64,000 bases of DNA from the sequence record LC494302.1, one strand, 5' to 3'. The DNA is from Escherichia phage SP27. Position 1 is the stretch's first letter. Every line of letters begins with the position of its first letter. The translations under genes were made by a program, and so were the position numbers. Below are positions 4,314 to 41,295 of this stretch, one piece after another. Under the pieces are notes generated by a model, which was not told the origin of the DNA, did not search any database, and was given only the letters and a program-made list of their open reading frames with translations.

Positions 4314-4602
4314 ACATGAAGTAATTCATTTTGATGATAAGATCTATATTCCAAATATTGATAGTACTGAAACATATTACCTAATCAATAAGATTATGGC
4401 TGAAACAAATACGTGTTGTCGTCAACAGCCAGGAAAATATGAGTTCAGTCAGACTATTGGTTATTACCGATATGATATGTTAGAATCATTTACAATTGAT
4501 AAGTCTAAAGTTATTGACATTCTTGTACAGAATGGATATAATGAAGAACGTGTAAATAATACAGATTTACCAGTTTCAAAAATTGTTCTTTCTAATAATT
4601 AA
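4306..4602 (+). CDS. hypothetical protein
   Basis: Internal ATG (MNKHEV) overlapping upstream stop; 98 aa. Confidence 0.4.
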   Translation: MNKHEVIHFDDKIYIPNIDSTETYYLINKIMAETNTCCRQQPGKYEFSQTIGYYRYDMLESFTIDKSKVIDILVQNGYNEERVNNTDLPVSKIVLSNN

Positions 4603-4605
4603 ACA

Positions 4606-4634
4606 TTGGACAAGAACAGATATTGTGATATAAT
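4606..4634 (+). promoter_or_regulatory. sigma70-like early promoter
   Basis: TTGGAC, 17 bp, TGaTATAAT. Confidence 0.45.
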
Positions 4635-4717
4635 GTTTGTTATCGGCAGATATTAAAATGCAAACCATTCCTCAATGATGAGGGTTTTTCATAAAAAAGA
4701 AATAAAAGGGTATTAAA

Positions 4718-4927
4718 ATGGCTAAAGAAACTAACGCACAAGTACTAGATATCACCGACTTCGACCGCACTGTGAACTACATTCAATTCCAGATTCATCA
4801 AGCAGAAGAAGCTCTAGCAGTATTCCACGGTACTGGTGCAAGGCCAATCCGTTTTGCTCACTTGATTGCATGGAAGAAAAGTCTTCAAGAAGAACTATCT
4901 GAACTGCGTAAAGCAAATCGTAAGTAA
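4718..4927 (+). CDS. hypothetical protein
   Basis: 69 aa ORF with AAAGGG RBS, flanked by hairpins. Confidence 0.45.
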   Translation: MAKETNAQVLDITDFDRTVNYIQFQIHQAEEALAVFHGTGARPIRFAHLIAWKKSLQEELSELRKANRK

Positions 4928-4992
4928 TTTATCTTACCGCCTCATCATTTTTGATGGGGCATTTTAATCATATAAAGTAAGAGGATTTATAA

Positions 4993-5499
4993 ATGAGTGT
5001 TGAATATTGGTTTTTGTTTGTGTGTATTGGTACACTTGCATTAATCACCATTGGATTGATTTTCAATACCATGATTAGTGGAAGTAAGTACTTTAAGACA
5101 TTCCAACTTTTAATGTCTGCTATGCCATATAGTGCTGATGCCGAAAAAACAATTTCTCTAATTTTAGATAAGTTCGATGCAAATCTTTTGGTGGCTAAAA
5201 TTTCAGCATGTGATACAAATATTTCATTCTACTCGGTAGACACGGATCTAGATGGAATTGATACACAATACTCAAATCCAGTAGTTGCTGAAATTTTCAT
5301 TGGTTCAAAATATTATGCCTATGGATATGTAAGAAAATATTATTCAGAAGCAAAAGCTGAGTTGACGAAGAAGCGACCATCAATAAAAACTTTAAAACGC
5401 ATCATTGCGTTGGAAAAATCACTTCGTGGTCAAACAAGCGTTAATGAGCCACCATCAGTGATTAAATCCAAAAAAAGTAATGTTGTGGAGTTGGAGTAA
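4993..5499 (+). CDS. membrane-anchored hypothetical protein
   Basis: 168 aa, N-terminal TM helix, AAGAGGA RBS. Confidence 0.5.
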   Translation: MSVEYWFLFVCIGTLALITIGLIFNTMISGSKYFKTFQLLMSAMPYSADAEKTISLILDKFDANLLVAKISACDTNISFYSVDTDLDGIDTQYSNPVVAEIFIGSKYYAYGYVRKYYSEAKAELTKKRPSIKTLKRIIALEKSLRGQTSVNEPPSVIKSKKSNVVELE

Positions 5500-5789
5500 T
5501 GGAACCAGAAAAATCAAGAAAAATTCTTATTGATGTCCAAACTAAATTACTAGATATTATGGAAATCATCAATGAGTTACCACAGGGTTATCAGTACAAA
5601 GTTCGTGAAATGTTATCTTGTGCCGAAACCGTTGTTTCTATGTACGATGATATTCAACATGGTATTATCCCTGATATTCTCAAAGATGACGTAAATATTA
5701 ACACTGAGGTAAAAGAAACTAAATTAGAATCAGAAACAGTATCTAATAAAAAAGTTCTAGACCTTAGTGGTATAAAAATTAATATCTAA
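5499..5789 (+). CDS. hypothetical protein
   Basis: 96 aa, TAATG-coupled. Confidence 0.45.
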   Translation: MEPEKSRKILIDVQTKLLDIMEIINELPQGYQYKVREMLSCAETVVSMYDDIQHGIIPDILKDDVNINTEVKETKLESETVSNKKVLDLSGIKINI

Positions 5790-5810
5790 AAAACATCCAA
5801 TAGGAGAAGT

Positions 5811-5960
5811 AATGAGTAATCAAAAAATCGACTTAGTAGTAAAACTTCAAGAGATTCAAGCACTAGCTAAAGACCTTGATAACACACGTGCATCAGTAGT
5901 TGATTCACTATGTGCAACAATCCTGACTGTTTTTACAGATTACGAAAAGAAATCTGATTA
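5811..5960 (+). CDS. hypothetical small protein
   Basis: 49 aa ORF with AGGAGAAG RBS, followed by terminator. Confidence 0.3.
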
Positions 5961-6676: not shown

Positions 6677-7165
6677 ATGCCAATTCGTGGTGTACCAGAA
6701 CCATTAATGGAAGTTATTAAGCATGTTCGCATTGGAGATCGAGAAGTTAATCTTCGCCGTAATAACATTTATTACTTTAAAACTTCAGAAATGAGTTCTG
6801 TACAGATTGTCATTGGTACATCTATTAAGATTACTCGTGTACTTGATGGTAGTACTGATTTCGTTGAATATAATGTACTTACTAACAAAGTAATACACAC
6901 ATATAAATGGAGTGGGTATAAAACTATTAAGTATGAGTTTGATGTTGCTAGAACTGAAGAAGAACGATTTATGTTAAGTACTATCAATCCAGCAAACTAC
7001 CCTGACCTTGATACATTTTTGCTAATTTTAAAACTGTATAATGAAGCAAATGGGAAAGCGAAGGAGTATGATAGAATTATGTATGAACGCAAAAAAGAAC
7101 GTGCTCAGAAAAGTTATGATCTTTATGATAACCCATATGTAAAATATAATAAGGGGAGAAAATGA
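6677..7165 (+). CDS. hypothetical protein, FQxST-like family
   Basis: ATG after AAGGAG RBS; EEERFMLSTINP motif. Confidence 0.45.
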   Translation: MPIRGVPEPLMEVIKHVRIGDREVNLRRNNIYYFKTSEMSSVQIVIGTSIKITRVLDGSTDFVEYNVLTNKVIHTYKWSGYKTIKYEFDVARTEEERFMLSTINPANYPDLDTFLLILKLYNEANGKAKEYDRIMYERKKERAQKSYDLYDNPYVKYNKGRK

Positions 7166-7566
7166 ATAACGAAGTTCAAATTATCATAACTCCACCTATA
7201 CAAAGTCTTGATGTATCTATTAGTGATTTTTTAGAAAAATATTATGAATGGTTTAATAATGATAATACCATTTATAATCATTCATTACCAGATGGTTTCG
7301 TGGAGCTTATCGAATTAAATTCAAAATCACTATACTTCTGTGTTGAATACAATGATTATATGACAGATGAAGATTATCGCTTTCGTTGTACATTGTATCC
7401 GAATTATTTTTCAATAGGTTATAAAGATTACCAGTACTGTACCACTAACTATAGTGTTGAGGAAGAATTTCAGTACAATTTACTTTATCCTGATTTAGAT
7501 TATACGATTGCAGTACTGTTGACTAAAATCATGGATTTTTATAAAGATAAATATAATGCAGCCTAA
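7162..7566 (+). CDS. hypothetical protein, FQ-motif family
   Basis: 134 aa; C-terminal EEEFQYNLLYPDLD. Confidence 0.45.
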   Translation: MNNEVQIIITPPIQSLDVSISDFLEKYYEWFNNDNTIYNHSLPDGFVELIELNSKSLYFCVEYNDYMTDEDYRFRCTLYPNYFSIGYKDYQYCTTNYSVEEEFQYNLLYPDLDYTIAVLLTKIMDFYKDKYNAA

Positions 7567-7741
7567 GACATTTGATGAGTGGTTTAATCTACACTATAAT
7601 ATAAATGCAGCAGATATATACTATTTTAAGCTTGAATTGTATATATCATTGCGTAACCCAATTGAGTACTATAACAACATTATCAATTGTGATGATTTTG
7701 GTACATATTTTAGTATAGCCGTTATGGATATTAAGAGATGA
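7556..7741 (+). CDS. hypothetical small protein
   Basis: 61 aa ORF. Confidence 0.3.
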   Translation: MQPKTFDEWFNLHYNINAADIYYFKLELYISLRNPIEYYNNIINCDDFGTYFSIAVMDIKR

Positions 7742-7917
7742 CACATGAAGAATGGATGGCAATGATGAAAAAACGTTATGACCAGTTTGGAAATGGATTT
7801 ATTGATGGTCATTTCGATATTTTACGAGACAAATATAAGTTCGAATCATATGTACTAGATGAGAATGGAAATCGTTGGTTCATCTATGAGCTTGCGGTTA
7901 GAGACAAAAAAATATAA
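7738..7917 (+). CDS. MTHEEWM-family small protein
   Basis: 59 aa ORF starting MTHEEWM; paralogous to four others in window. Confidence 0.45.
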   Translation: MTHEEWMAMMKKRYDQFGNGFIDGHFDILRDKYKFESYVLDENGNRWFIYELAVRDKKI

Positions 7918-19127: not shown

Positions 19128-19243
19128 TTATCCCTCCATTGGTATAATTATTATAACGTATTTATTATGCATATCCAAAAAATGAGCTTGACTGGTGTAT
19201 GATTTGGTGTTATCATGTAGTGAATGAATAATGAGGTGTTTTT

Positions 19244-33355: not shown

Positions 33356-33390
33356 AAAGGTTGACTTCGGTCAGCCTTTTTTGTTATAAT
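33356..33390 (+). promoter_or_regulatory. PeSL-like terminator/promoter hybrid
   Basis: AAAGGTTGAC-ttcg-GTCAGCCTTTTTT; TTGACT lies in the stem, TATAAT 18 bp downstream. Confidence 0.6.
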
Positions 33391-35650: not shown

Positions 35651-36094
35651 ATGAGTTGGGTAAATGTTAATAGTATTGAACTTAACGAACAAGATATTTT
35701 TGCATTTGTAAATTTAACTAATAACACAGTACTAAAAGGGCGTTTGTTCAGTGCTAGTGATGGGTACAAATGGATCTCTTTGATGGATGATAGTGGTGTG
35801 ATTTATAATGTAATGCAATTACCCCAATGGGTATATAGTAACACTGCTGACGATGTTCTTACCGCAGTTATGCGTGAGTTTGAAAAACTCCCAGGTGGTG
35901 ATATCAAAAACAAAGTTTTTAATGCAGAACGTAAAAATTATACAGCACAGCAGTTGGAATCCGTTGCCATTGCTGCTTATCAAGCTGCTATTAAGAAGCC
36001 AGAGTGCGTTATTCTTAAGTATGTACCAGACTTAAAACTTACGTTGGAAGACATGGATGCATTCATTTTTACATCTGAACTTGATCAGTACTAA
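35651..36094 (+). CDS. hypothetical protein
   Basis: Start at MSWVNVN; 147 aa. Confidence 0.5.
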   Translation: MSWVNVNSIELNEQDIFAFVNLTNNTVLKGRLFSASDGYKWISLMDDSGVIYNVMQLPQWVYSNTADDVLTAVMREFEKLPGGDIKNKVFNAERKNYTAQQLESVAIAAYQAAIKKPECVILKYVPDLKLTLEDMDAFIFTSELDQY

Positions 36095-36210
36095 TTTAAC
36101 TTTGGGACAACCATTCTTATTATGATATAATGTTTTATGTCATTCGATATAAATGACAAACGGAACTATAAATATTATAGTAAAATTTATCTCTTATAGG
36201 AGTTATAAAA

Positions 36211-36594
36211 ATGGTTGATAAATGGAATAAGAAAGATCCATCACATGATGTTGATATTTCTGGTCTAGACAATGCACATAAGCACAAGTATCTAGATTCA
36301 CTAGGTCTTCTAAAACCAGACCAAAGTCTTGCACATGATCGTCCATCCCGTGAAAAAGCATTTAGCCTAGAATCACTAGGTCATGAGCTTAATCGTGTGT
36401 TTGAGGATCACCCAATCTATGTACGTGATATTATCGAGAAACTTAAAGTAACTCCTAAAGAGCACTTTAAAGCAACTGTACACTCTGCATTCCGTGCATT
36501 ACATGAATCTCTAAAGAAAACTCACAATCTTCGTAAAATTCATGATGAAATCGTGAATGCAATCGAAAGTGAAAAACATAAGTTCAAGAAGTAA
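36211..36594 (+). CDS. hypothetical protein (SLGLL-motif, paralogous domain with 36840)
   Basis: 127 aa, TAGGAG RBS; motif YLDSLGLLKPDQ. Confidence 0.5.
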   Translation: MVDKWNKKDPSHDVDISGLDNAHKHKYLDSLGLLKPDQSLAHDRPSREKAFSLESLGHELNRVFEDHPIYVRDIIEKLKVTPKEHFKATVHSAFRALHESLKKTHNLRKIHDEIVNAIESEKHKFKK

Positions 36595-36597
36595 TAA

Positions 36598-36632
36598 AAA
36601 GGGTTGACTAAGGTCAGCCCTTTGTTGTATCA
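36598..36632 (+). promoter_or_regulatory. PeSL-like terminator/promoter hybrid (variant loop)
   Basis: AAAGGGTTGAC-taag-GTCAGCCCTTTG; weaker -10. Confidence 0.5.
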
Positions 36633-36662
36633 TAACTTCTCAATATAACTGAGGTATCATAT

Positions 36663-36776
36663 ATGCAAGGTTTAAAATTTGTAGTTGCTGCACTCATCGC
36701 CGCAGTACTGGTTGGTGGTGTATTCTATGTAGTGGATCAAAAAGTAAATCCACCTGCACAAGAACAATCTAAGTAA
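36663..36776 (+). CDS. small single-TM protein
   Basis: 37 aa ORF MQGLKFVVAALIAAVLVGGVFYVV, bracketed by two PeSL elements. Confidence 0.3.
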   Translation: MQGLKFVVAALIAAVLVGGVFYVVDQKVNPPAQEQSK

Positions 36777-36782
36777 CAAAAT

Positions 36783-36815
36783 AAGGTTGACTTCGGTCAG
36801 CCTTTTCTTTATACT
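36783..36815 (+). promoter_or_regulatory. PeSL-like terminator/promoter hybrid
   Basis: AAGGTTGAC-ttcg-GTCAGCCTTTT; TTGACT-17-TATACT. Confidence 0.6.
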
Positions 36816-36839
36816 ATAAATATAGACATAGAGAAAAAA

Positions 36840-38117
36840 ATGAAATCTATGGAGAGAAATCAAATGCCAAGTAATTTTACTGATAAAAATGGTGGTAACA
36901 TGGCTGGTCACTCTGATAAATGGAGTGAACGCAACCGCCGTCCAAATAGTTATCAAGCAGGTCAAGGTTCACGTGGATCACGTAACCAAGGAACTGGTCT
37001 AGCTGGTAAAGCAAACGCAGAAGCAGGTGAAGTTAAGAGTACTGAGAACATGACTGAGCTAGAAAAGCTACGTTATGTTAATTCATTGGGACTTCTTAAT
37101 GCTACACAAAAACAACGCCTAGCTGATATGGAACGTGAAGAAAAAGAAAAGTCTGCTCCTGCGAAAGAAGAACCAAAACAAGAAGCACCAAAGGCGGTTA
37201 ACCCTGTCAAAGAACTGTCTGATAAGTTAGGTAAGATTTTTGCTAATAAACCACAACTTATCCAAGGTATTGTGAAAGAATTGCAATCTGTACCTAAAGA
37301 AGAATTAAAAGTCAAAGCACAAGCTGTGCTTGATGCAATGAGTGGAAATACCAGTACTGAACCAACTGAAGTATTCAGTACTATAATGCGTGCACTTGAA
37401 GGTACGCAACAAGGTGATGTGCCTGCACAAGAGGAAGTAAGTCTTGAAAGCGTACTTAAAACATTTGATAGTATTGGTAAAGAAGACCGTGCTAATGCTC
37501 AACAAGTTAAGAATGTACTAGCTAAGTTAGAAAACCGTCTGGAAGGTAAAGACGATAAGATTAAATTAGTATCTGATGCAGTTAACGATGCACTTAAATC
37601 TTATGTACAAGGTGAAAAGAGTCGTTTTGTAACTGCAATGGATGCTGCATTCAATACTATGAAAAAGTATGAAGCTGATCATGGTGAGAAGGTTACACGA
37701 GATGGTTATCTGATGCGTGATGATGAAGAAGGTGCAGTAGAACAGAACGATGTTCATTCAGACGAAGAAATTGATGACATGGAAGCTGAACTGTCACAAG
37801 ACCGCCAAATGACTGAAAAATCCCATAACGAACTACAGAAATTAATGCAATGGGTTGCAGATGTTGGTGAAAAAGCTGGTGCTGATAAGAAGAGTATAAA
37901 TCGAAATCTTAGTTGGATTAAAGATAAAGTTGGTAACAACGCTCGTAAACTACAAAAAGCGTGGACTGATGTAGTGAATGGTGCTGTTGATATTGATGTT
38001 GAATCCGGTGAGGCATATGATTATGCATTGACTACACTTGATGACTCTTTCCGTGATTACGAAAATGGAAATGTAACTCCTTGGGAAAAGGACATCATGA
38101 GCAAATACGGTAAATGA
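36840..38117 (+). CDS. hypothetical protein, K/E/Q-rich (SLGLL motif)
   Basis: 425 aa; low-complexity basic N-terminus, LRYVNSLGLLNATQ motif, charged helical body. Confidence 0.55.
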   Translation: MKSMERNQMPSNFTDKNGGNMAGHSDKWSERNRRPNSYQAGQGSRGSRNQGTGLAGKANAEAGEVKSTENMTELEKLRYVNSLGLLNATQKQRLADMEREEKEKSAPAKEEPKQEAPKAVNPVKELSDKLGKIFANKPQLIQGIVKELQSVPKEELKVKAQAVLDAMSGNTSTEPTEVFSTIMRALEGTQQGDVPAQEEVSLESVLKTFDSIGKEDRANAQQVKNVLAKLENRLEGKDDKIKLVSDAVNDALKSYVQGEKSRFVTAMDAAFNTMKKYEADHGEKVTRDGYLMRDDEEGAVEQNDVHSDEEIDDMEAELSQDRQMTEKSHNELQKLMQWVADVGEKAGADKKSINRNLSWIKDKVGNNARKLQKAWTDVVNGAVDIDVESGEAYDYALTTLDDSFRDYENGNVTPWEKDIMSKYGK

Positions 38118-38123
38118 TAAAAC

Positions 38124-38160
38124 AAAAGGTTGACTTCGGTCAGCCTTTTTTTGTAAATAC
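38124..38160 (+). promoter_or_regulatory. PeSL-like terminator/promoter hybrid
   Basis: AAAAGGTTGAC-ttcg-GTCAGCCTTTTTTT. Confidence 0.55.
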
Positions 38161-40259: not shown

Positions 40260-40598
40260 ATGGAACAATATTTTGAATTAATAAACAAAGTATCATTTTA
40301 TGTAGTATCTTTGGTTTGGGTGTATTATATGTTTTGCTACATTATTGCATTCTTCCGATACACTACTTTATATGAACGTATCTACTATGATGCCCCAATT
40401 TCATTCTTGATGTTTTGTGCATGTACGTGGGGAATATTAGAAGTACTGATATGTGGGTATAGTACTGATGAATTAAATCTGGTATCGGTCTTGACTGGGT
40501 TTTCATTTGTTGTTATGATAGCTGCCGTTCCAGTATGGTTGTTCTTTGGACTAGTTCATCGCATTGATATATGGCGTTCTAATATCCCTGAAAAGTAA
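40260..40598 (+). CDS. small multi-TM protein, array A member 1
   Basis: 112 aa, 3-4 TM helices, basic tail RSNIPEK. Confidence 0.5.
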   Translation: MEQYFELINKVSFYVVSLVWVYYMFCYIIAFFRYTTLYERIYYDAPISFLMFCACTWGILEVLICGYSTDELNLVSVLTGFSFVVMIAAVPVWLFFGLVHRIDIWRSNIPEK

Positions 40599-40607
40599 GG
40601 ATTGGTA

Positions 40608-40949
40608 ATGATTTATTACACTAACATGTTTGCCTATGCTGTTGCTTGCATTTACATTGTTTACTTCTTATTTGGTGGAGTACTGTGCTTCTTTAAGTAC
40701 AAAACGTTGTTCAACCGAATGTACCCAAATCATCCAATTGTAGTTGTACTTTTGATTCTTTCAGTTTCTCAAATAATCGTTGAAACTACAATGGGTATCA
40801 GTAGTGTACATTATAGTTTTGGTACTATAGTAATTATTACTATGCTTATTGCATACATTTTAGTACTTGGATATGGTATCTTTGGTAATATTGGTATGAA
40901 AATGTATCATCGAATTAAAACATTACGTGATAATCTACCGGAGCGTTGA
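40608..40949 (+). CDS. small multi-TM protein, array A member 2
   Basis: Paralog; tail LRDNLPER. Confidence 0.5.
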   Translation: MIYYTNMFAYAVACIYIVYFLFGGVLCFFKYKTLFNRMYPNHPIVVVLLILSVSQIIVETTMGISSVHYSFGTIVIITMLIAYILVLGYGIFGNIGMKMYHRIKTLRDNLPER

Positions 40950-40950
40950 T

Positions 40951-41295
40951 ATGTATAATTTGAACCTAATCTCATATATTATAACAACACTGTTTACATT
41001 CTATGCCTTTGTTGGTATAATCCTACTGTACTTTAAATTTTATAAAGTGTTTAACCGTTTCTATCCTTCAATGGAGAATGAGTTTTTCTTTGTGTTGTAC
41101 GTATGTTACACATTCATGGCTACATGTTTCACTGTAGTCGATGGTGTCATCGGCATTAAAACTGCTGCACCAAATGGTAGTACGCTGGTTGCATTTATTC
41201 TTACCGGATTCCTTGCAACTTATATTGCCTTCATTGCAACATGGTCAGTGGTTGAATTTCTCTTGCGACTACGAAAGAATATGCCGAATCGATAG
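40951..41295 (+). CDS. small multi-TM protein, array A member 3
   Basis: Paralog; tail LRKNMPNR; TGATATG coupling. Confidence 0.5.
   Translation: MYNLNLISYIITTLFTFYAFVGIILLYFKFYKVFNRFYPSMENEFFFVLYVCYTFMATCFTVVDGVIGIKTAAPNGSTLVAFILTGFLATYIAFIATWSVVEFLLRLRKNMPNR

Follow-up and report, generated by a model that had tools for sequence, protein, structure and literature searches.

Paralogous virion proteins of the RaK2-like jumbo phage SP27, marked by late-promoter motifs and an exchangeable cassette, as candidate internal head proteins

Proteins carried inside the phage head are known from the inner body of phiKZ and from T4. Those of the phiKZ inner body (gp89, gp90, gp93, gp95, gp97, and gp162) are abundant head proteins, some of which are injected with the DNA and some of which are paralogous to one another; the class is defined by about 100 to 200 DNA-embedded copies that are responsible for bubblegram damage. 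In T4, the internal proteins have a conserved N-terminal segment, with the remainder differing between related phages (PMC3012670). A different kind of element, PeSL (promoter-early stem-loop), in which a strong terminator stem-loop is joined to a promoter of the sigma70 type, has been described in T4-type phages (Arbiol 2010; Comeau 2014). A locus with likenesses to each of these is described here in Escherichia phage SP27 (sequence record LC494302.1), from which a stretch of 64,000 nucleotides (nt), referred to as the window, was analyzed. Two genes on its + strand, designated A (36211 to 36594; 127 amino acids [aa], 14.83 kDa) and B (36864 to 38117; 417 aa, 46.39 kDa), encode paralogous proteins that are incorporated into virions and that we tentatively read as accessory internal head proteins, belonging either to an inner body or to the material ejected with the DNA, a placement that is quite possible rather than probable.

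Paralogous virion proteins and their family

As judged from sequence, the source phage is a RaK2-like jumbo myovirus (Asteriusvirus) and not a T4-type phage. The 4-kb region around A and B has 99.5% identity to Escherichia phage vB_EcoM_phAPEC6 and 94 to 99% identity to further Asteriusvirus jumbo phages (about 350 kb), such as 121Q, PBECO4, and G17, with 121Q being 94% identical to this phage. The A protein has 100% identity to phAPEC6 gp037c, and the B protein to gp035c; A is also the equivalent of 121Q gp199, and B is allelic to 121Q gp201. Both open reading frames (ORFs) reported in an earlier note on this DNA are present, with the start of B corrected: translation almost certainly begins at the ATG at 36864 and not at 36840, because all homologs begin with MPxxF there and a GGAGAG Shine-Dalgarno sequence lies upstream. 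The same start is annotated in phAPEC6 and 121Q, and the 46.39 kDa listed for gp035c in the phAPEC6 table (PMC7247149) fits 417 aa.

The earlier note had proposed that the two proteins are packaged and had named virion proteomics as the check, and published mass spectrometry (MS) finds both of them in phAPEC6 particles. Electrospray ionization tandem MS of purified phAPEC6 virions detected gp037c (A) with 5 unique peptides (48% coverage) and gp035c (B) with 8 peptides (28.8% coverage) (PMC7247149). The single homolog in CBB virions, CBB_38, was detected with 9 peptides (56.6% coverage) (PMC5259590), RaK2 gp275 was found in RaK2 virions with 20 peptides (34.3% coverage), and GAP32_032 is flagged as MS detected in the supplement of the CBB paper (PMC5259590). 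On this published proteomics, the products of A and B are virion incorporated. In the peptide table for CBB_38, residues 50 to 172 are almost fully covered, including the peptide SLGLMPGAEP...PER; mature CBB virions thus contain an SLGL-bearing peptide, so no cleavage occurs at SLGLL. The table has no peptide from residues 1 to 49, where the undetected peptides are short and hydrophilic, and the first one recorded is tryptic. This gap could reflect removal or modification of the N terminus or poor recovery of short hydrophilic peptides.

A shared SLGLL motif and helical module had been noted in the two proteins, with pairwise alignment and structure prediction suggested as ways to check it, and both bear it out. 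Using BLASTP, A and B were found to share 24% identity over 119 residues (E = 4e-8), in an alignment running from K(H/L)(K/R)Y(L/V)(D/N)SLGLL through the helical region. A matches the family profile phrog_16530 at 3.6e-56, and B matches phrog_20398 at 6e-180 and also the profile of A, phrog_16530, at 5.8e-38, while a hidden Markov model (HMM) of the helical module detects A at 7e-29 and B at 7e-33. The AlphaFold models of both proteins have the same elements in the same order: first a helix with the LGLL turn after it, then a disordered linker, and finally four helices, which span residues 53 to 63, 68 to 79, 86 to 103, and 107 to 126 in A and residues 114 to 125, 130 to 141, 145 to 161, and 167 to 180 in B. 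A and B are paralogs, their similarity being far above chance; the literature consulted does not remark on the paralogy of the two Asteriusvirus genes.

In A, SLGLL occupies residues 30 to 34 (36298 to 36312) and the four-helix module residues 50 to 122 (36358 to 36576). B begins with a conserved N-terminal motif (residues 1 to 80; 36864 to 37103) in which SLGLL occupies residues 73 to 77 (37080 to 37094), followed by a Pro/Glu/Lys-rich linker, the four-helix module (residues 110 to 181; 37191 to 37406), a second helical domain (residues 194 to 273), an acidic disordered linker (residues 276 to 298), and a C-terminal helical domain (residues 299 to 415). In the model of B, residues 1 to 60 are disordered, the helix-SLGLL-helix segment at residues 61 to 96 is the most confident (predicted local distance difference test [pLDDT] of 88 to 92), residues 114 to 180 and 194 to 273 form helical bundles (pLDDT of about 80 to 90), and the helical residues 299 to 415 are of lower confidence.

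Relatives of A and B were identified in the genera Asteriusvirus, Alcyoneusvirus (RaK2 and K64-1), Mimasvirus (GAP32 and CBB), and Eneladusvirus (BF and fHe-Yen9-04), in Munch/7t3-like phages, and on a few metagenomic contigs whose gene context is the same, with one or two members in each genome. When 1.84 billion representative proteins were searched with a profile, just 34 clusters were returned, all of them belonging to the A/B family and carrying the same core, except for a few sequences that were short or limited to the N-terminal motif and two that lacked the G/S/R-rich part. The family is therefore small and confined to RaK2-like jumbo myoviruses. It is already catalogued as PHROG 16530/20398 and is not a new kind of system: 121Q gp199 and gp201, both labeled "virion structural protein" in RefSeq, and CBB_38, GAP32_032, RaK2 gp275, and K64-1 gp344 are of the same family as A and B, as the family profiles and our own HMMs of both parts agree. 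What is added here is the late-promoter marking, the domain anatomy, the exchange of a cassette reaching from SLGLL to a PeSL-like element, and a natural deletion.

The basal form of the family, about 155 to 180 aa, consists of the N-terminal motif, the Pro/Glu/Lys-rich linker, and the four-helix module, which is some 70 residues long. Within the N-terminal motif (about 80 residues), a disordered, G/S/N/R-rich stretch is followed by an amphipathic helix and the KLKYFNSLGLL turn; the motif consensus is MPxxFxxKNGAxxAGHSDKWSxxNRRxNSHxAGQGSRGSRNQGTGxAGKANTxxSxxVDTSKMxPEEKLKYFNSLGLL. The earlier note had called the N terminus of B basic and of low complexity. It is mildly basic (isoelectric point [pI] of 9.6, net charge of +3, with G, S, N, or Q at 32 of 80 residues) in a protein that is acidic as a whole (pI of 5.06), but it is not a drifting low-complexity tract, as the G/S/N/R-rich N terminus is the most conserved segment in alignments of the family. 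A retains DKW and VD.S...K.KY.DSLGLL and lacks the 29-residue NRR...ANT center of the motif. Its module is of the REKAFS.E..G.EL subtype, which in metagenomic relatives is paired with a complete N terminus, and A therefore derives from a full-length paralog and is not a fragment of B. The C-terminal extension amounts to about 235 residues in B, where it is all-helical and acidic, and to 380 residues in the RaK2 and K64-1 proteins. No significant further copies of the helical module were found in that of B with the HMM (independent E value, 1.4). Two metagenomic relatives, P0009 (contig SRR30726806_20707; positions 7040 to 7810 of locus L014) and P0039, have two four-helix modules in tandem. 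On the contig of P0009, a Band_7/SPFH protein is also encoded about 3 kb upstream. The same holds for GAP32, CBB, and BF, in which the Band_7/SPFH protein is virion associated too.

No domain was matched when A, B, and 15 variants of the family were scanned against Pfam and NCBIfam, a sequence search against solved structures gave no match for A or B, and a BFVD fold search returned nothing beyond this RaK2-like family. The phAPEC6, CBB, RaK2, 121Q, Sharanji, and fEgEco12 papers and a 2026 jumbo-phage review were found to contain no statement on what the family does. In GenBank (MK817115), phAPEC6 gp035c is labeled "chromosome segregation protein"/SbcC-type exonuclease/SMC. This identity was rejected for B, which lacks an ATPase head and Walker motifs and has no Pfam match to SMC or AAA at an E value of ≤1, and whose model consists of short helix bundles (10 to 39 residues) joined by disordered linkers, not a long antiparallel coiled coil. 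B resembles SMC/SbcC proteins merely in being helical and charged, and the label probably arose from coiled-coil-like composition.

Exchangeable cassette and transcription signals

Comparison with 121Q delimits an exchangeable and deletable cassette in B at 37080 to 38123 (+), extending from the SLGLL codons to the downstream stem-loop. DNA identity to 121Q is 99 to 100% from 36000 to 37079, falls to 69 to 88% from 37080, the first SLGLL codon, and returns to 98% from 38124. Synonymous divergence (dS) is 0.02 for B codons 1 to 72 and 0.6 to 1.1 downstream, and the ratio of nonsynonymous to synonymous divergence (dN/dS) in the cassette is 0.08 to 0.21, indicating purifying selection. The jump in dS, to about 0.9 against 121Q, together with the low dN/dS points to an old functional allele that was swapped in by recombination; positive selection on the variable part of B was rejected on the same grounds. 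The 121Q allele, gp201 (positions 4364 to 5851 of locus L001), is longer by an insert of about 78 residues (DTVDMDGYIHRPEMEEF...HGIDVGS), placed after the acidic linker and before the C-terminal domain. Across Asteriusvirus genomes, the identity of B ranges from 100% down to 59%, while that of A is at least 93%, and at least six to eight distinct B alleles occur among genomes that are otherwise 94 to 99% identical.

A natural deletion coincides with the same boundary. Salmonella phage SD-2_S15 (OR699181; locus L016) has a clean 984-bp deletion of 37140 to 38123, with its right end exactly at the stem-loop, which removes residues 93 to 417 of B and fuses residues 1 to 92 to the next ORF. The module and extension of B therefore appear to be dispensable, at least with A present. 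A similarly truncated B was found, by tblastn only, in three sister isolates, with SD-6_S16 and SD-1_S14 being among the similar ones.

The stem-loop at the right-hand boundary (38124 to 38149, +; z score of -4.9) is a consensus stem-loop followed by a T-run and is the predicted terminator of B. Upstream of B, a consensus stem-loop, AAGGTTGACTTCGGTCAGCCTT (36783 to 36815, +), includes TTGACT as an embedded -35 box, together with the -10 box TATACT, and has its hairpin at 36783 to 36804 (z score of -5.1); the same element also precedes the K64-1 and 7t3 homologs. After A lies a variant, GGTTGACTAAGGTCAGCC (36598 to 36633, +), a PeSL-like putative terminator and early promoter that has TTGACT within its stem and, 18 nt downstream, TATCAT; its hairpin at 36598 to 36622 has a folding energy of -17.6 kcal/mol (z score of -5.3). 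The 18-nt stem-loop GGTTGACTTCGGTCAGCC occurs eight times in the window, compared with 0.02 expected, and the copies are on the + strand at 33359, 36602, 36785, 38128, 39213, 43708, 44291, and 44990. In these putative terminator/promoter cassettes the TTGACT -35 box lies inside the stem and the -10 box 17 to 18 nt downstream (TTGACT-N17/18-TATNNT). No description of the GGTTGACTTCGGTCAGCC cassette for RaK2-like phages was found in the literature consulted.

The description of both genes as bracketed by PeSL holds in full for B (36783 to 36804 and 38124 to 38149) and in part for A, which has the variant copy on its 3' side only. Directly upstream of A a PeSL is absent, and a sigma70-like promoter and a weak hairpin (z score of -2.1) are found instead; the nearest upstream consensus stem-loop is that at 33359. 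The cassettes resemble the PeSL of T4-type phages in combining a stable stem-loop (z score of about -5) with a near-consensus sigma70 promoter, in recurring as intergenic repeats in a plastic region of small, mostly uncharacterized genes, and in lying at the boundaries of replacements and deletions, since at this one locus the 3' ends of both the 121Q replacement and the SD-2_S15 deletion fall at 38124. Unlike those PeSL, they belong to a RaK2-like jumbo phage, have their own 18-nt consensus, and hold the -35 box inside the stem, and the second crossover lies inside a coding sequence, at SLGLL, and not at another PeSL.

A and B are also marked by a T4-type late-promoter motif. The octamer TATAAATA is present exactly twice in the window, compared with 13.5 copies expected, and is the rarest of 56 8-mers of the same composition. 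Both copies precede these genes, one at 36167 to 36174 (+), 44 nt before the ATG of A, and the other at 36815 to 36822 (+), 49 nt before the ATG of B, where it overlaps the -10 box. The same two copies are the only ones in 49 kb of phAPEC6, the position before both genes is kept in 121Q, and K64-1 gp344 has TATAAATA at -45. Both sites thus have the sequence character of T4-type late promoters, in which a -10 motif with no -35 element lies upstream of late or structural genes, and ATAAATA was reported before structural genes of CBB and GAP32, with CBB encoding a gp55-like sigma factor (PMC5259590). As the neighboring genes are small and mostly hypothetical, A and B appear as isolated late genes. 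A sigma70-like promoter is also predicted directly upstream of each, that of A (36102 to 36131, +; TTGGGA-N18-TATAAT with a TG extension) having 10 of 12 consensus matches in a scan, so early as well as late transcription is possible.

Elsewhere in the window, a late-promoter-like box matching at seven of eight positions, AATAAATA, is found at 19165 (-), 39 nt before the start of the equivalent of phAPEC6 gp077. As gp077 is an MS-detected virion protein, this box supports the link of the motif to virion genes.

Position of A and B in the particle

The earlier note had suggested that A and B may be packaged internal or injected proteins, pointing to the T4 internal-protein genes near denV. That synteny was rejected as evidence: RaK2-like phages are a different lineage from the T4-type phages, about 12 annotated genes lie between B and the denV homolog (gp022c, about 7 kb downstream), and A and B have neither similarity to IPI to IPIII nor a T4-type cleavable capsid-targeting sequence. 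An internal placement is supported indirectly by other evidence. Particles of 121Q and phAPEC6 have a bubblegram-visible, phiKZ-like inner body, and no phAPEC6 protein is similar to the phiKZ inner-body proteins according to the phAPEC6 authors. The models of A and B are disordered and all-alpha, and the proteins are highly charged. Such a makeup is typical of phage core and ejection proteins and not of beta-rich decoration or fiber proteins. Their genes lie outside the main structural gene cluster and far from the tail and baseplate cluster, and a conserved N terminus with a variable remainder recalls the T4 internal proteins with their capsid-targeting sequence. Under this placement, the invariant N-terminal motif would dock the protein into the particle, and A and B would be nonessential internal head components that either form part of the inner body seen in 121Q and phAPEC6 or leave with the DNA. 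Their role would be functionally comparable to that of the T4 internal proteins or the phiKZ inner-body proteins, while being unrelated to both.

With IPI, IPII, and IPIII, A and B would share the status of nonessential accessory virion proteins encoded away from the main structural genes, and the sequence downstream of SLGLL is swapped here between near-identical genomes. They differ in having no sequence or fold similarity to IPI to IPIII, in a conserved segment of about 80 residues compared with about 10 in T4, in keeping the motif region in mature CBB virions, and in a four-helix module conserved across genera, in contrast to the hyperdiverse T4 cargo. In family alignments, no T4-type (L/I)xE protease site was found in B, and neither of the two in A is conserved in the family. 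Likewise, no similarity to the phiKZ inner-body proteins was found in the BFVD fold search or by the phAPEC6 authors, and there are only one or two A/B family members in a genome.

Several points weigh against an internal placement. The head location of every family member is purely inferred, and RCC1-repeat proteins were the inner-body candidates preferred by the phAPEC6 authors. A conserved N-terminal anchor with an exchangeable C terminus is also the classic layout of fiber and decoration proteins, and these phages bear capsid and tail "hairs" that the same authors left unassigned. The core is kept across genera under strong purifying selection, which suggests a structural and not an arms-race role. 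A cleavable targeting peptide was not found, given the lack of an (L/I)xE site in B and the SLGL peptide in mature CBB virions, and the N-terminal region is weakly basic, so DNA binding is not implied. The SD-2_S15 deletion, for its part, comes from one assembled isolate genome. A stronger form of the internal placement, in which the family forms or nucleates the RaK2-like inner body, the uncleaved 80-residue motif is a new head-targeting or DNA-embedding signal, and the C-terminal cassette of B is delivered with the DNA, is considered doubtful.

The layout just mentioned leads to an external alternative, in which A and B would be anchors or components of the hair-like fibers or decoration layers that phAPEC6, 121Q, and CBB bear on capsid and tail, with the conserved N terminus plugged into the particle surface and the variable C terminus exposed. 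phAPEC6 has an unassigned decoration layer, fibers at hexamer centers, and tail fibers at three levels to which such proteins might belong; a conserved N terminus, a recombining C terminus, and allelic exchange among near-identical genomes are usual for exposed host-interacting proteins, and the cassette of B appears dispensable. This is nevertheless unlikely, as the two all-alpha models, whose long linkers are disordered and highly charged, contain no beta-rich, Ig-like, beta-helix, or collagen-like domain, none of 10 long variants has a Pfam domain, the dN/dS of 0.08 to 0.21 gives no sign of diversifying selection, and the core is kept in phages with very different fiber sets (RaK2 compared with CBB and GAP32).

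Somewhat less likely again is a place among the minor tail, neck, or baseplate components, or among assembly factors that stay bound there: the proteins are virion associated in four phages and phAPEC6 has 62 virion proteins, many of them unassigned, which would leave room for this, but the distance of the genes from the tail and baseplate cluster and the tolerance of a partial deletion argue against it. It seems improbable that A and B have no role in the mature particle and are either scaffold or core leftovers or abundant, copurifying late proteins. [quoted passage not shown] Internal placement of A and B remains the tentatively favored reading.

Neighboring genes and significance

The neighborhood of A and B consists of small, mostly hypothetical ORFs together with a sigma70-type sigma factor, a protein kinase, and denV. 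Between the two genes lies a 37-aa ORF (36663 to 36776, +; phAPEC6 gp036c and 121Q gp200) with one hydrophobic helix, which matches phrog_35037 at 2e-29 and is not a member of the A/B family; the sigma70-like promoter in the stem-loop cassette that follows A serves this conserved ORF. Farther downstream, at 40260 to 41295 (+), a tandem array of at least three similar ORFs (112 to 122 aa), each with several hydrophobic segments and a basic C-terminal tail (…NIPEK, …NLPER, and …NMPNR), resembles a set of paralogous membrane proteins. A 22-nt leader, TTAAATATAGTATAATGAATAA, is identical at nine sites between 51030 and 62829 (-) and precedes each member of an array of RCC1-repeat paralogs, the virion "DNA condensation proteins" of phAPEC6. 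In phAPEC6, this leader is preceded by a different stem-loop (GCCAGTACT...GTACTGGC), and the combination resembles a second family of promoter cassettes.

Some consequences hold wherever in the particle A and B reside. T4-style late promoters, as predicted here, tag isolated virion-protein genes amid small uncharacterized genes in a non-T4 jumbo phage, and the PeSL-like cassettes, as boundaries of recombination and deletion, extend a mechanism whose descriptions have so far been limited to T4-type phages. Also corrected is the label "chromosome segregation protein" of gp035c, which is misleading. If A and B are internal, they would be specific candidates for constituents of the 121Q and phAPEC6 inner body, which has no phiKZ inner-body homologs, and the N-terminal motif would be a candidate packaging tag. 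Should the family in fact form or nucleate the inner body, it would provide the first molecular handle on such a structure beyond the phiKZ group, together with a packaging tag by which cargo could be delivered in 350-kb phages. The late-promoter marking, domain anatomy, cassette exchange, and natural deletion make the question of the inner body of these phages testable.

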